The translations under genes were made by a program, and so were the position numbers. Source: Candidatus Scalinduaceae bacterium (GTDB taxonomy: Bacteria > Planctomycetota > Brocadiia > Brocadiales > Scalinduaceae). From it: DNA of 64,000 bases. Under the pieces are notes generated by a model. It had not been told where the DNA came from, searched no databases, and saw only the letters and a program-made list of their open reading frames with translations. The stretch's first letter is position 1. Every line of letters starts with the position of its first letter. Positions 18,680 to 31,523 of the stretch are shown one piece after another. The stretch lies in NCBI GenBank assembly GCA_046759445.1, contig JBHICG010000008.1:15239-79238 (forward strand), read 5' to 3'.

Positions 18680-19345
18680 GACACTATTTGGGGGAGTAGG
18701 TATGGGATAAGAGTATTTAGTTTAAACAGTTTAAAACGTTCAAATCGCTTAAACAGTTTGAGCAGTTTGAACAATTTTAAAAAGGAGGGGGGGAAAGATG
18801 AGTGCAAGATATTTTGAAGATTTAGAAGTCTGGATACTCTCAAGAGAATTAACGAATAAAATCTACAATGTAAGCAATGACGGTAGATTCGCAAAAGATT
18901 TCGGACTCCGTGATCAGATAAGAAGAGCTGCTGTTTCCATTATGTCAAACATTGCAGAAGGATATGAAAGGGGCGGCAATCAGGAATTTATTCAGTTTTT
19001 GTCAATAGCCAAAGCCTCATGTGGAGAGGTGCGGTCACAGTTGTACGTCGCCATGGATCAAAGTTATGTTGGCAAAACAAAGTGTGAACAATTAATAGAC
19101 GAATTTAAGAAACTCTCCATCATGATTAACAACTTTATCGAATATCTAAAAGGTAGCAGATATAAAGGAATAAAGTATAAAAACAAAACGGTTTAAACCG
19201 CTTAAACCGTTTAAACGGCTCGAACGGTTCTTTAAGAGAATTGGGCAGAAACTATACTAAATATGTTTTGAGCAAAAAGAGTGTAAGTGTTTGTGATTAG
19301 TGAAAGAAATCCCCCATTTTCTTCACTTGCACATTCACTTACACA
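18650..19345 (+). repeat. direct duplication, copy 1 (WYL 3' end + four-helix-bundle module)
   Basis: Matches 20183-20920, starting at ATAAAAAAAATGAAGAAAATTTATCAGTAGGACAC. Confidence 0.9.
18798..19196 (+). CDS. four helix bundle protein (TIGR02436/IVP family), copy 1
   Basis: [24 protein letters not shown] and [16 protein letters not shown] motifs. Confidence 0.92.
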
Positions 19346-19459
19346 TTTTATATGAGCGAAAGCAGAGTTATTTAGACTTGTTATTAGCCTTGTGAATGGA
19401 TAACATAAACGGCTAAAGCTGAATTAATAGAGCAATGAGCTATAATAAGATTTAAGGAG

Positions 19460-19735
19460 GTGATTAATATGGTGATTATTGATAAGGAAAAAGTAAAAGA
19501 TATGTATTATGCCAATATGATGTGTGAGTATCACAAGGTAACGGAAAAGATCAGACTTTTCACAAGAAAATACTCGATGTCATTTGAACATTTTGAAAAG
19601 AACATAAAAGGATCTGAGAAAGAAGACTTTGAAAGGTGGGATGATTATATGGAATGGAAAGGGTATGAAAAAGTCTTACAGAATCTGATCAAAGAAAAGA
19701 AGGAGCTGGAAGTTGGAGATTATAAAGTGTCTTGA
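19460..19735 (+). CDS. putative antitoxin
   Basis: Small ORF overlapping the next gene; KYSMSFEHFE...WDDYMEWK pattern. Confidence 0.6.
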   Translation: MINMVIIDKEKVKDMYYANMMCEYHKVTEKIRLFTRKYSMSFEHFEKNIKGSEKEDFERWDDYMEWKGYEKVLQNLIKEKKELEVGDYKVS

Positions 19736-20048
19736 AAAAAGTAGTGCAGTCAAAGATTTTAAAATTCTAGTCCTTGAGTATTTTGAAGGCGGTTTCTACA
19801 TAAGAATTAAAGTCACATTGAATAACAATACTGAACTGTACATAAGGGAATACTCTGACGTTAATGTACGAAACTATTCATATCACTGGCAAGAACCAAA
19901 TCAGAAGTTATTGATCAGATGGGACAACTCAGCACATCACAAACATATTGAAACATATCCACATCATATTCATCATAGTAATAATGTCTTACCAAGTTAT
20001 CAAATCTCTTGCGAGGAAATATTAAAGATAATTGAAGAGAAAATCTGA
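19713..20048 (+). CDS. DUF6516-like putative toxin
   Basis: YSYHWQ..LIRWDNSAHH..TYPHHIH motif. Confidence 0.75.
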   Translation: MEIIKCLEKSSAVKDFKILVLEYFEGGFYIRIKVTLNNNTELYIREYSDVNVRNYSYHWQEPNQKLLIRWDNSAHHKHIETYPHHIHHSNNVLPSYQISCEEILKIIEEKI

Positions 20049-20182
20049 GCAAAAAGAAGTTGAATACTTTTACCGGAAACAATGGAGGTCACAAAAATGA
20101 TACAAGAATTTATGAATTATCTAAATAACTCCAAAACTCACAAATCCTCCATCTCTTTAACTCTAAAGCTGAAACAGACGAA

Positions 20183-20920
20183 ATAAAAAAAATGAAGAAA
20201 ATTTATCAGTAGGACACTATTTGGGGGAGTGGGTATGGGATAAAGTATTTCTGTTTAAACAGTTCAAACGGTTAAAACAGTTTAAACGGTTTTAACTTTT
20301 TTGTTAGTTAAACCGCTTGAACAGTTTGAACAATTATAAAAAGGAGGTGGGAAAGATGAGTGCAAGATATTTTGAAGATTTAGAAGTCTGGATACTCTCA
20401 AGAGAATTAACGAATAAAATCTACAATGTAAGCAATGACGGTAGATTCGCAAAAGATTTCGGACTCCGTGATCAGATAAGAAGAGCTGCTGTTTCCATTA
20501 TGTCAAACATTGCAGAAGGATATGAAAGGGGCGGCAATCAGGAATTTATTCAGTTTTTGTCAATAGCCAAAGCCTCATGTGGAGAGGTGCGGTCACAGTT
20601 GTACGTCGCCATGGATCAAAGTTATGTTGGCAAAACAAAGTGTGAACAATTAATAGACGAATTTAAGAAACTCTCCATCATGATTAACAACTTTATCGAA
20701 TATCTAAAAGGTAGCAGATATAAAGGAACAAAGTATAAAAAGTCAAAAAATAAAATGGTTTAAACGGTTTAAACCGCTTAAACCGTTTAAACGGCTCGAA
20801 CGGTTCTTTAAGAGAATTGGGCAGAAACTACACGGAAAATGTTTTGAGTAAAAAGAGTGTAAGTGTTTGTGATTAGTGAAAGAAATCCCCCATTTTCTTT
20901 ACTTCACTCACACTTACACT
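20183..20920 (+). repeat. direct duplication, copy 2
   Basis: Matches 18650-19345; coding part identical by eye, repeat arms diverged. Confidence 0.9.
20356..20763 (+). CDS. four helix bundle protein, copy 2
   Basis: Identical to 18798 except the last ~10 codons; RBS AAGGAGG before ATG 20356. Confidence 0.92.
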
Positions 20921-21281
20921 AATTTCTGATTTTTGCATGAAGAACTAGAGAAATTAAAGAGCCCCCTTTAAAAAGAGGGGATTTAGGGGTGTGTTCCGAT
21001 GAGAAAGAACTAAGGAGTGGCTGAAGATTGGACAAAAGAAGTTTTAATAGATTTAATTAAATAAGATGTGTATGTGCATTGTGAAAGTAAATTACTTACC
21101 TAGTATCTGACTTCTGTGTTCTGTTGTCTGTCTTTTGATCACTTACACTTGTTTTTATGATGTATGAACCCCCAATGCTTCCTTGCCAAAAGTAGGCTCT
21201 GTAAGAGCGGAAGCAAGGAATGGGGGTGGATTTTTCGGGAATATGTATAAAAACAAAACATAGTTTCATTGCTATAAATAA

Positions 21282-29570: not shown

Positions 29571-29604
29571 TAAATCTAACATCTATATTCTATTTCTAAA
29601 AACC

Positions 29605-30576
29605 ATGCAACTCGTAATCAACACTTACGGTTCTTATCTTCGAAAGAAGGAAGGTTGCTTCCTTGTTAAAAATGAGGATGGTGAGTTCGACGTATCTGTA
29701 AAAAAGGTGGATAGTATTATGATTACGACAAGTTCTTATCTTTCCACTGACGCAATAAAGATGGCAATGGATAATAACATTGACGTTATCTTCCTTGATG
29801 ATTATGGAGACCCTTACGGCAGGGTGTGGCATTCAAAACTTGGAAGTACCGTTGCAATAAGACGCAAACAACTGGAAATGACATCTAACGAAAAAGGCCT
29901 GAATATGGCCAAGGAATGGATAATAGCAAAACTAGACAATCAGATTGAGTTCCTTACTAAACTAAAAAACTCAAGACCAGAAAAAGAGTCCAAATTAAAT
30001 GAATATAGTTCAAGACTGGGAGAAACAAAGGAAAAATTGGGAAAACTGACAGGTACAATTGATGAAAAAAGAAACACAATAATGGGACTCGAAGGTTCTG
30101 CAGGCAGGACTTATTTTGAAGCCATTAATTACGTCATGCCAGATAGATATAAATTCGATGGAAGAAGTAAGCAACCAGCAAAGGATGAATTTAATTGTCT
30201 CCTCAACTACGGATATGGTGTCCTTTATTCAATAGTTGAAAAGGCGTGCATTATAGCAGGACTCGATCCTTACGTTGGTTTCGTTCACACTGATAATTAT
30301 AATAAGAAATCACTCGTATTCGACCTGATAGAGATGTTTAGAATTTTTGTAGACCAGACGGTTGTCTATCTCTTCAGTCAAAGGCAAGTAAAACAGGAGT
30401 ATTTTGACAAAATAAAGAATGGATTGACTCTGAATAAAGAAGGAAAGGCTGTGCTGATAGAGGCGCTTAATAAGACCTTTGACAAGAGTGTCAGGTACAA
30501 GGGAAGAAATATAAAGAATAAAAATATAATTCAGTTTGAGTGCCATGCGATAGCGAATGGGATTATCAAGTGTTAG
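29605..30576 (+). CDS. cas1: Cas1
   Basis: MGLEGSAGRTYF, NCLLNYGYGVL, GLDPYVGFVH and SLVFDLIEMFR motifs; ATG 29605. Confidence 0.96.
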   Translation: MQLVINTYGSYLRKKEGCFLVKNEDGEFDVSVKKVDSIMITTSSYLSTDAIKMAMDNNIDVIFLDDYGDPYGRVWHSKLGSTVAIRRKQLEMTSNEKGLNMAKEWIIAKLDNQIEFLTKLKNSRPEKESKLNEYSSRLGETKEKLGKLTGTIDEKRNTIMGLEGSAGRTYFEAINYVMPDRYKFDGRSKQPAKDEFNCLLNYGYGVLYSIVEKACIIAGLDPYVGFVHTDNYNKKSLVFDLIEMFRIFVDQTVVYLFSQRQVKQEYFDKIKNGLTLNKEGKAVLIEALNKTFDKSVRYKGRNIKNKNIIQFECHAIANGIIKC

Positions 30577-30659
30577 TATAAGTAAATGGTGTAAGTGATA
30601 GGTGAAAGTGTAAGTGAATCGTATCGTTTAAGTGTATAGTGATAAGAAGGGAGATAGAG

Positions 30660-31031
30660 ATGAATGTTGATATCAAAAGTGTTGAGGATCTGGATGTTTT
30701 CAAAATGGCTCATGAACTGGTATTGAAAATATATAAGATTACAAAAAAGTTTCCTGACGAAGAGAAGTTTGGTTTAGTTTCACAAATGAGAAGAGCTGTA
30801 TCATCAGTACCCATGAATTTAATGGAAGGTGGACACCGTCTTTCTTCAAAAGAGTACCGTCAATTTGCAGGCATAGCGAACGGTTCTATAGGTGAATTTA
30901 AATATCATATACTTTTATCTAAAGACCTCAAATATCTATCAAACGATATTTACCATGAATTAAGAAATACAGCAGAAGAAATTAGCAAGATGTTAATGGG
31001 ATTAATAAAATCCCTTTCAAAGAAGCAGTAA
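30660..31031 (+). CDS. four helix bundle protein between cas1 and cas2
   Basis: EDLDVF, FPDEEKFGLVSQMRRAVSSVPMNLMEG motifs; enclosed by inverted 6-mer repeat arms. Confidence 0.9.
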   Translation: MNVDIKSVEDLDVFKMAHELVLKIYKITKKFPDEEKFGLVSQMRRAVSSVPMNLMEGGHRLSSKEYRQFAGIANGSIGEFKYHILLSKDLKYLSNDIYHELRNTAEEISKMLMGLIKSLSKKQ

Positions 31032-31138
31032 ATTTCGTTTTTTAGAAATGAAAGAATTTCTGTCTATAGAATTTAACTATAACCTAAAGGCATATTCACC
31101 AATACTTACACTTACACCGAACACATACACTATAAGCA

Positions 31139-31429
31139 ATGCTAACCTGGCTTGTATACGACATAGTTGAGACAAAGAAGAGGAATAAGATTGTAAAGGC
31201 TTGTAAGCAGTATGGTCTTTACAGGGTACAGAAGAGTGTATTCCTCGGTACACTGAATAATAATGAAATTGATGAAATATCATTGCGATGTCAGGATATA
31301 ATTGATGAGGATAAAGATTCAGTTTATATCTTTCCTTTCTGTGATGAGGATTTTAAGAAGATTAAACTCCTGGGACAGGCATTTGACAAAAAATTGGTAA
31401 GTGATGAAATATTAGCAAAATTTTTTTAG
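31139..31429 (+). CDS. cas2: Cas2
   Basis: [14 protein letters not shown] and DSVYIFP motifs. Confidence 0.95.
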
Positions 31430-31523
31430 TGAAAGTGTTTTGTGTAAGTGTCAGTGATTTTACTTACACACATACGCTTATTATTACAACTTCACTTTCA
31501 CTCTTACACTTACACCTACACTA
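31428..31523. repeat. empty 6-mer-arm hairpin module between cas2 and cas4
   Basis: AGTGAAAGTGTTTTGTGTAAGTGTCAGTG ... CACTTTCACTCTTACACTTACACCTACACT. Confidence 0.75.

Follow-up and report, generated by a model that had tools for sequence, protein, structure and literature searches.

Intervening-sequence (IVS)-type stem-loop cassettes probably reside in the intercistronic spacers of protein-coding operons, as we found in a 64,000-nt stretch of DNA from a Candidatus Scalinduaceae bacterium (GenBank assembly GCA_046759445.1, contig JBHICG010000008.1, forward strand, 15,239-79,238; here, the window; G+C content, 36%). The window carries three genes for TIGR02436-type four-helix-bundle (4HB) proteins, and a profile search of the 64 kb found no others. 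Each gene lies between two inverted arms built of short tandem repeats, and gene-less hairpins of similar build occupy nearby spacers. The same architecture, specific to 4HB genes and placed inside operons, recurs in genomes of many bacterial phyla, and it is identical with that of a bona fide 23S rRNA IVS. Orthologous cas junctions hold a gene in one genome and only a hairpin in another. A sequence-only reading of the window had proposed an undescribed element. In kind it is not undescribed, because the architecture is that of the known 23S rRNA IVS, here in a setting outside rRNA. New here are the rRNA IVS architecture outside rRNA, the repeat-built arms, and the gene-less derivatives; no prior description of tandem-repeat arms around non-rRNA 4HB genes, or of an operon-internal rule, was found in the full-text literature, whose coverage largely excludes subscription journals.

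Cassettes and gene-less hairpins in the window

All three 4HB open reading frames (ORFs) are members of PF05635 (Pfam E values of 2.8e-37, 6.8e-36, and 8.8e-36), and the TIGR02436 model scores 4HB-3 at 117 bits and 4HB-1 at 119 bits (cutoff, 24). The protein encoded between cas1 and cas2 (4HB-3) matches PDB entry 2GSC (E 1.5e-27), and its gene has its own Shine-Dalgarno sequence inside the cassette loop. The four-helix-bundle fold is related to that of Avd, which acts as an accessory protein in diversity-generating retroelements, and the bAvd and Avd models match weakly. However, the scores fall below both curated cutoffs (33.7 bits for 4HB-3 with the Avd equivalog model NF033474, cutoff 80; 30.7 bits with bAvd PF22296, cutoff 40), and Pfam identified no reverse transcriptase among the 19 ORFs between 14086 and 32147 (template/variable repeat pairs were not searched specifically); identification as Avd was rejected on these grounds. 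The cassettes and hairpins of the window are as follows.

30569..30646, + strand: left 6-mer arm of the filled cassette, from the cas1 stop codon (best-pairing part, 30586-30615)
30660..31031, + strand: 4HB-3 gene, 123 aa, TIGR02436 / PF05635, between cas1 and cas2 (Pfam E 2.8e-37; TIGR02436 117 bits)
31095..31133, + strand: right 6-mer arm of the filled cassette, stopping 5 nt short of the cas2 ATG
18720..18777, + strand: left 9-mer arm (GTTTAAACN)n of cassette 4HB-1 (Tandem Repeats Finder period 9, 6.6 copies; flank score 30 versus shuffle mean 16.6)
18798..19196, + strand: 4HB-1 gene, 132 aa, TIGR02436 / PF05635 (Pfam E 6.8e-36; TIGR02436 119 bits)
19186..19229, + strand: right 9-mer arm of cassette 4HB-1, over the stop codon
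20253..20331, + strand: left 9-mer arm of cassette 4HB-2, 24 nt longer than the 4HB-1 copy
20356..20763, + strand: 4HB-2 gene, PF05635, duplicate of 4HB-1 (coding sequence one base different), with a duplicated WYL gene tail upstream
20749..20805, + strand: right 9-mer arm of cassette 4HB-2, 18 nt (two units) longer than the 4HB-1 copy (flank score 39)
29474..29501, + strand: 9-mer arm remnant upstream of cas1 (GTTTAAAC at 29483)
19279..19345, + strand: gene-less 6-mer hairpin, AGTGTA / TACACT type (fold -28.7 kcal/mol; 19272-19352, z -7.0)
20855..20920, + strand: gene-less 6-mer hairpin, duplicate of 19279-19345 with a diverged right arm (20848-20928, z -7.1)
29501..29570, + strand: gene-less 6-mer hairpin between a 76-aa ORF and cas1 (-25.8 kcal/mol; 29495-29575, z -4.95; arms 74% complementary)
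31428..31523, + strand: gene-less 6-mer hairpin between cas2 and cas4 (31420-31528, z -3.5)
21065..21150, + strand: degenerate chimeric remnant with AGTGTA-type left units, the shared centre, TCTG-type 7-mer units, and a terminal CACTTACACT

The sequence-only reading had listed six sites at which a 6-mer arm is followed by its complement, five empty and one filled with a 4HB gene. The motif AGTGTAAGTG with at most one mismatch occurs 26 times in the 64 kb, about 9-fold more than the 2.9 expected (maximum of 100 shuffles, 7); 22 of the 26 matches fall in those six sites, where + strand copies invariably precede - strand copies, which confirms the sites and their polarity. In the filled cassette, the segments 30586-30615 and 31104-31133 are 83% complementary over 30 nt and pair across the 488-nt insert in both the minimum-free-energy and the centroid folds of 30560-31140 (z -2.2), in agreement with a gene enclosed by its arms. 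The stop codons of cas1, cas2, and both duplicated 4HB genes lie in or at the first arm unit, as had been noted, and the 19-nt centre GTGAAAGTAAATTACTTAC, reported as common to two empty sites, has exactly two occurrences, at 21081 and 29522. As a separate observation, the next hairpin has a left arm (31424-31455) with 81% complementarity to the right arm of the filled cassette (31104-31135), so cas2 is bracketed by a pair of opposite chirality that may allow alternative pairings.

RNA folds were compared with those of 200 dinucleotide shuffles. None of the 200 folds as well as the native sequence at any of the four gene-less hairpins at 19279, 20855, 29501, and 31428 (z -3.5 to -7.1), whereas 21065-21150 folds no better than chance (z +0.1; 112 of 200 shuffles equal it). 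The proposal that the arms fold beyond shuffled controls thus stands for four of the gene-less sites and fails for the fifth. By eye, the bases outside the four intact hairpins show no target-site duplication. Intrinsic terminators were ruled out, as a scan gave seven terminator-like sites, the number expected from shuffles (7.3); none of the seven is on the + strand, and thus no site on that strand falls at a hairpin.

The 9-mer arms that had been said to bracket the other two 4HB genes were found at both, with 77% complementarity between 18720-18750 and 19186-19216 (4HB-1) and 75% between 20253-20305 and 20749-20801 (4HB-2). Across the cassettes of the window, flank scores are 30 to 39 versus shuffle means of about 17, and arms are 75 to 83% complementary over 30 to 53 nt. 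The remnant at 29474-29501 does not by itself fold beyond chance (z -0.13). In a related locus (L008), an intact 4HB-1-type gene lies just upstream of cas1, where the window has only this remnant, and its product is the sister of the window 4HB-1/2 proteins with a support of 100 in the 4HB protein tree (L008_8523).

A segmental duplication of about 700 bp relates 18650-19345 to 20190-20920, each copy comprising the tail of the WYL gene, a 4HB gene with its arms, and a 6-mer hairpin. The copies bracket a TumA-like/TumE toxin-antitoxin pair, and the right boundary lies in or at the 6-mer hairpin. Because both lie within this one duplication, the hairpins at 19279-19345 and 20855-20920 are not independent. 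The duplicated coding sequences differ by one base, while the 9-mer arms differ in length by 24 and 18 nt and the right 6-mer arm has diverged, which indicates that arms evolve much faster than the gene. Arm change proceeds mostly via gain and loss of units.

Arms, operon junctions, and rRNA in other genomes

The TIGR02436 / PF05635 family is found very widely, with 943 matches at E ≤ 1e-10 among 974 candidates in one search and more than 525 confirmed loci in a genome scan. The phage collection contained no match to 4HB-3 at E ≤ 1e-3. With an alignment of 20 4HB sequences, we scanned and fetched 79 loci from many phyla (41 to 68% identity to 4HB-3), which together with the window contain 86 4HB ORFs by profile, 77 of them with 150-nt flanks on both sides. 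Arms were scored by local alignment of the upstream flank with the reverse complement of the downstream flank, since RNA duplex energy is unsuited as an arm measure (shuffled flanks already reach -40 to -100 kcal/mol, in the linear regime). Arm scores of at least 30 were obtained for 50 of the 77 4HB genes (47 of 74 in the fetched loci only), compared with 2 of 355 windows of the same geometry at random positions in the same loci and 8 of 689 flanks of other real ORFs. Flank complementarity exceeds that of at least 99 of 100 shuffles (p ≤ 0.01) in 69 of 77 cases. Such arms are therefore enriched around 4HB genes, a property for which the sequence-only reading had suggested a scan.

Three of the eight high-scoring real-ORF controls are divergent PF05635 genes missed by the profile. 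The remaining named ones are a GxxExxY gene (PF13366), an IS200-like transposase gene, and a glycosyltransferase gene that merely sits between two hairpins, with arms of opposite chirality. This Pfam check took in 10 of the 12 control ORFs scoring at least 28, two ORFs of L065 being excluded. GxxExxY (PD-(D/E)XK fold) constitutes a second cargo type, with tandem-repeat arms in two of the six genes examined: (TACGGA)n arms in L070 (13519-13917; score 48) and (CAGAGGA)n arms in Bacteroides finegoldii, between radA and a gene for an FAD-dependent protein (L090, 1186-1560; score 45). A GxxExxY gene on a Fusobacteria plasmid (L086, 1100-1700) lies between direct repeats of about 26 nt, the arms not being inverted.

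Arm anatomy was studied in 63 arm pairs scoring at least 25. Periodic pairs number 45, versus 4% of shuffled arms, with periods of 7 (22 pairs), 6 (16 pairs), 8 (5 pairs), and 9 nt (2 pairs). The 5' arm has more G than C in 51 of the 63 pairs, is C rich in 9, and is balanced in 3; at least three GTG triplets occur in 40 of the 63 5' arms and at least three CAC triplets in none. The unit varies among groups as follows.

CGTGTC/CGTGAC: Thermodesulfobacteriota, WOR-3, Binatia
AGTGTA/AGTGAA: Nitrospirota, Nitrospinota, Desantisbacteria, this window
AGTGTC: Omnitrophota, Aminicenantes
GTGATTA: Burkholderiales
TAGAGGC: Pyrinomonadaceae
ACAGCTG: Stahlbacteria, Cloacimonadota
GTAAACA: Patescibacteria
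GGTGAGT: Planctomycetota

Arm class maps onto a tree of 76 4HB proteins with 26 changes, compared with 47.4 for shuffled labels (none of 200 shuffles reaches 26), and well-supported multi-phylum 4HB clades have one arm class in common. Because relatedness alone clusters labels, more weight attaches to paralogues of different clades within one genome, which bear different arms (window, L008, and L032). By these comparisons, the arms appear to track the element, that is, the 4HB clade, and not the host genome.

The conserved triplet within variable spacers suggests another function for the arms. TRAP forms an oligomeric ring and recognises triplets that recur at a fixed spacing. By analogy, the arms might be binding arrays for a ring-shaped 4HB protein, with one repeat unit of single-stranded RNA or DNA for each subunit of a pentamer. 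Binding would compete with the stem and control the 4HB gene and, via gene-less hairpins, the neighbouring cistrons as a small posttranscriptional regulon, and each 4HB paralogue would recognise its own unit. GTG chains at 5- to 9-nt spacing with a length of at least four occur in 44% of upstream flanks versus 1.2% of background windows, and the relatives 2GSC and 2RLD have five chains per PDB entry. The relation of arm class to protein clade, including the paralogue contrasts, is as this reading predicts, but coinheritance of arms and gene accounts for the tree pattern equally well. Moreover, the modal chain length of 4 to 5 is a weak signal, complementarity is kept in both arms although a single-strand binding site would not need it, and one locus (L026) has hairpins of at least four unit types with one 4HB gene in 20 kb. 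We regard the ring reading as unlikely on balance.

The placement at operon junctions suggested for the window holds across the sample, with co-directional partner genes and arms flush with stop and start codons. Co-directionality with the 4HB gene holds for 62 of 73 upstream neighbours and for 54 of 70 downstream ones. Left arms begin at a median of 2 nt past the upstream stop codon (37 of 50 within -10 to +15), and the right arm ends a median of 7.5 nt ahead of the downstream start codon (25 of 40 within ±15). Pfam annotation of 141 neighbours gave the following junctions, to which annotated plasmids add the last two.

cas1 / 4HB / cas2: L008, L011, L020, L021, L024, L036; cas1 upstream in L040 and L042
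cas2 / 4HB / cas4: L009
nadK / 4HB / recN: L002, L010, L012, L017
sugar dehydratase / 4HB / DegT: L014, L015, L018, L032; in L028, only the upstream dehydratase ORF was scanned
rmlB or rmlD / 4HB / rmlA: L043, L064, L068, L078
Wzy-TPR / 4HB / PilC: L030, L033, L035, L037
wzm / 4HB / wzt: L004, L051
thiolase / 4HB / DUF35: L005, L019
transketolase / 4HB / glpX: L058, L070
ilvB / 4HB / ilvN: L079
paaA / 4HB / paaB: L062
Cmr2 / 4HB / Cmr3: Picosynechococcus plasmid
cas6 / 4HB / cas4: Pseudanabaena plasmid

Within orders, the nadK/recN junctions (four loci) and the Wzy/PilC junctions (four to five loci) are all filled, so movement looks rare.

Nine fetched loci have an adaptation module related to that of the window (Cas2 62 to 74% and Cas4 54 to 68% identical), and their junctions are filled or gene-less as listed.

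Window, L008, L020, L024, L036, L042: 4HB cassette at cas1/cas2, gene-less hairpin at cas2/cas4
L009: gene-less hairpin at cas1/cas2 (z -4.4), 4HB cassette at cas2/cas4
L021, L011: 4HB gene at cas1/cas2 (in L011 without a right arm), neither hairpin nor 4HB gene at cas2/cas4

The cas2/cas4 hairpins of five fetched loci fold with z values of -4.4, -4.7, -5.1, -2.7, and -5.6; L040 stops inside the 4HB gene, and its cas2/cas4 junction is outside its coverage. Occupancy in L009 is the reciprocal of that in the window and five other loci, which bears out the prediction of filled and empty forms at orthologous cas junctions. Both junctions of a genome use the same arm unit in five of the six loci that have both, and the unit differs among genomes (window, AGTGTA; L008, AGTGTC/AGTGAC; L020, AGTGCA; L024, AGTGAA; L042, CCGTGRY), as a ring protein with its own unit would also have it. 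G+C content does not set the unit, since L042 uses CCGTGRY despite a G+C content of 38%. The exception is L036, with CGTGAAC-type filled arms and an ACAGAAA-type gene-less hairpin. A unit that is uniform within genomes and variable between them indicates that complementarity is kept under sequence turnover and that the two sites coevolve.

These cas junctions, kept as cas1/4HB/cas2 or cas2/4HB/cas4 in nine fetched loci and the window, could also mean that the 4HB protein serves CRISPR adaptation as a functional accessory and that the hairpins are ordinary intercistronic regulatory structures or terminators. One paper names the 23S rRNA IVP among new associations of adaptation modules (PMC10910872), and another reports 18 such genes in cas loci (PMC3936711). 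We consider a CRISPR function very improbable, because the same gene-plus-arms layout has many unrelated habitats, at least a dozen operon junctions as well as 23S rRNA. Furthermore, the 4HB proteins linked to cas genes are spread over three distinct clades that also contain non-cas members, and the terminator scan described above gave no + strand site at the hairpins. The published association may reflect residence at an insertion-tolerant junction instead of proving a cas function.

The link to rRNA is direct in Azospirillum lipoferum. The plasmid collection contains 24 records with a relative of 4HB-3, mostly Nostocales, and in plasmid AZO_p2 (L085) the 4HB ORF interrupts a 23S rRNA gene (2529 bits with Rfam LSU) at a distance of about 1,150 nt from the 5' end of that gene; it is thus a classical IVS. 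Its arms are tandem heptamers (score, 47; shuffle maximum, 23), and the fold of the element has an outer stem of 20 bp (z -10.1). Heptamer arms also flank plasmid 4HB genes of Calothrix (score 56), Gemmatirosa (score 54), and Picosynechococcus (score 29), and the arms of the Nostoc punctiforme plasmid gene are short (score 19). rRNA IVSs are also known in ORF-less forms. In the Coxiella IVS, an S23p ORF lies within terminal inverted repeats, which pair as a 28-bp stem that RNase III cleaves (PMC4990558). The cassettes resemble the 23S rRNA IVSs of Leptospira, Coxiella, and Azospirillum in protein family, in an ORF placed inside terminal inverted repeats that form a long stem, and in a host transcribed unit that must stay functional. 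They differ in lying between protein-coding cistrons (with cas1/cas2 and the WYL gene as flanks) and not in an rRNA helix, and RNase III cutting is demonstrated for rRNA IVSs only. An Rfam scan of 16500-32600 of the window found no rRNA and no family matching the arms, CRISPR repeats alone being above threshold; in 13 further loci, Rfam likewise found no rRNA, L085 being the sole exception.

Proposed IVS-type cassettes in operons, compared with mobile and repeated DNA

The reading that we favour, an IVS-type cassette inside an operon, would work as follows. The cassette consists of two inverted arms, each a degenerate tandem array of a 6- to 9-nt unit, enclosing either a TIGR02436 gene with its own ribosome-binding site or, in the gene-less form, a short loop only. 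It would be cotranscribed with the host operon, and the arms would pair in vivo into a stem of about 25 to 50 bp whose base is flush with the upstream stop and downstream start codons. Such a stem would loop out the insert and make the host cistrons adjacent again, preserving operon expression, and RNase III would probably cut it, by analogy with rRNA IVSs. Arms and gene would move as one unit, the arms changing fast through unit gain and loss. Exchange between hairpins with common arms is a candidate route of spread that would explain both the swapped occupancy in L009 and the single unit per genome. Both this mobility and the role of the 4HB protein are inferred.

Several observations weigh against this reading or limit its reach. 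(i) Significant arms are absent in 8 of the 77 4HB genes. The heptamer tracts of the Pseudanabaena plasmid gene are direct and not inverted, only one flank of the PCC 7120 plasmid gene carries a tract, and L011 has a 350-nt left tract and no right arm. (ii) The sample is skewed to 4HB-3 relatives (41 to 68% identity), and many of the 77 genes are mutually orthologous, so independent insertions are far fewer than 69, although there are at least a dozen distinct junction types. (iii) At cas1/cas2, 4HB divergence (55 to 66% identity) is about that of Cas2 (62 to 74%), which implies long residence and fits a host-beneficial role as well as a selfish one. (iv) Arm mismatches show no excess of the G.U type (83, versus 70 of the A.C type; p 0.33), so the mismatches bear no signature of selection on the sense RNA, and the constraint may act at the DNA level. 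(v) The periodic, conserved GTG core goes beyond the needs of a plain stem and keeps alive the idea of a protein that reads the units, for which a pentameric 4HB ring is a candidate. In the Pseudanabaena cas6/4HB/cas4 locus (L082, 1350-2000), (AAAGCTA)n lies upstream and (AAAGCCA)n downstream, the two being mutually noncomplementary. In L011, AGTGTC and GACAGAA units make up the tract of about 350 nt (~9650-10000), which separates cas1 from the 4HB gene, and cas2 follows the 4HB stop codon after only 10 nt.

A DNA-level miniature mobile element, similar to REPIN/RAYT or to a miniature inverted-repeat transposable element (MITE), would accommodate the lack of a G.U excess, which it predicts. 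The arms would then be terminal inverted repeats with the 4HB gene as passenger cargo, the enzyme would be encoded elsewhere or replaced by template switching or gene conversion between arm-sharing hairpins, and the gene-less hairpins would be a nonautonomous majority. In line with this, the outermost units (AGTGTAAGTG ... CACTTACACT) are the best conserved in each window site, occupancy has been swapped between two hairpins of one operon, GxxExxY provides a second cargo in tandem-repeat arms (L070 and B. finegoldii), and gene-less hairpins cluster near 4HB genes. In the fetched loci such hairpins are common: in a scan at a score of at least 24 (a cutoff of 30 misses three of the window sites), 92 of 273 are periodic or contain 6-mers of local arms, and seven of several unit types are listed for L026 with its single 4HB gene. 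In a Calditrichaceae locus (L047, 9053-10851), one 4HB gene is surrounded by seven closely spaced hairpins of the (GCTATCA)n type, whose loops measure about 95 nt. Against a DNA element stand the missing target-site duplications at the four window hairpins, which also set them apart from MITEs, the uniformly filled orthologous junctions within orders, and the presence of such arms in only two of six GxxExxY genes. In addition, arm sequence drifts between relatives while complementarity is kept, whereas a transposase site would be fixed. Pfam found no transposase or integrase beside the cassettes among the 19 ORFs scanned (14086-32147), in keeping with the earlier description of transposase-free modules. 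On this evidence a DNA-level element is improbable.

A comparable layout is that of REPIN/RAYT, a small gene flanked by inverted hairpin-forming repeats with many gene-less extragenic hairpin copies. A gene between inverted hairpin repeats plus gene-less copies is common to both systems, and an IS200-like Y1 transposase gene in L050 has a RAYT-like layout with 110-nt inverted flanks. These flanks are nonperiodic, unlike those of 4HB cassettes, in which the arms are degenerate tandem arrays of many unit families per genome, inside operons and flush with the cistrons. The window cargo is a PF05635 four-helix bundle with no known catalytic fold and not a Y1 transposase.

Cyanobacterial STRR sequences are intergenic heptamer tandem repeats, and cyanobacterial plasmid 4HB genes are here flanked by heptamer tracts. 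Xanthomonas genomes have 70 to 75 inverted GGGAATC heptamer pairs each, variable in length and capable of forming stem-loops, which were read as G-quadruplex formers; S23p or 4HB genes are not mentioned in that report (PMC4692102). Like the arms, both consist of tandem units of about 7 nt in intergenic spacers, often as convergent stem-loop pairs of varying length. TAACTGA direct repeats are described for Beggiatoaceae (PMC4679880); this and the Xanthomonas report come nearest to a prior description among the literature searched.

A broader interpretation is tentative, and we would not bet on it. In it, TIGR02436 (sometimes GxxExxY) genes with tandem-repeat arms would be unrecognised, phylum-spanning “operon introns”. 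These would be transposase free, insert exactly between cistrons or into rRNA helix tips, loop out via a stem that rejoins stop and start codons, and home between unit-sharing hairpins, with a pentameric 4HB ring reading its own units; their gene-less derivatives would make up much of the unexplained 6- to 9-nt intergenic tandem-repeat DNA (STRR-type heptamers and Xanthomonas GGGAATC pairs). Independently of this, the fixed nucleic acid context gives TIGR02436 / PF05635 a testable role, namely that the protein targets or requires the arms of its own cassette. Three literatures are joined, on intervening sequences in rRNA, on heptamer repeats between genes, and on repeat elements that form hairpins; annotators may treat such spacers as structured cassettes, and the layout suggests a natural design by which an operon could accept an inserted gene and stay intact.

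Neighbouring genes and further repeats

The cas8b-cas7-cas5-cas3-cas6b-cas1-cas2-cas4 set and its array constitute a type I-B CRISPR-Cas operon. The genes and features around the cassettes are as follows.

16888-17589: YgjP-like gene
17585..17599, + strand: solo 7-mer tract (TCTGACT x2), directly after the YgjP stop codon, right-arm type, third arm family (putative)
17600-18679: WYL/WCX regulator gene
19460-20048: TumA-like/TumE toxin-antitoxin pair
21282-23588: cas8b
23560-24963: cas7
24960-25673: cas5
25657-28011: cas3
28008-28691: cas6b
28722-29231: ORF6N gene
29249-29479: 76-aa ORF
end at 30576: cas1
31139-31429: cas2
31530-32147: cas4
from 32470: CRISPR array

The 76-aa ORF was considered as a 4HB remnant and ruled out (BLASTP E 0.45; no Pfam or NCBIfam match). 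The TCTGACT tracts that the sequence-only reading had placed near 17585 and 21105 lie at 17585, 17592, and 21106. In L026, L036, and the Azospirillum rRNA IVS, left arms of (CAGAAGA)n are matched by right arms of the similar (TCTGNNN)n form, and on this basis we assign the tract at 17585-17599 provisionally to a third arm family.

A second hairpin family (CCCCCAATGCTTCCTTGC ... GCAAGGAATGGGGG) occurs at 17606-17666 and 21168-21230, just upstream of the WYL regulator gene and cas8b, each copy with a TCTGACT-type tract ahead of it (fold z -2.4 and -2.1); these hairpins may be an operator or leader element common to the two transcription units. Inverted repeats of the AAATTGAGCGATTTT type, with arms of 18 to 21 nt and spacers of about 115 nt, are present at 5772-5922 and 8491-8647 of the window. 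The ORF6N gene of the window adjoins the 9-mer arm remnant, and an ORF6N-domain gene adjoins the 4HB cassette in three Binatia loci (L022, L029, and L038).

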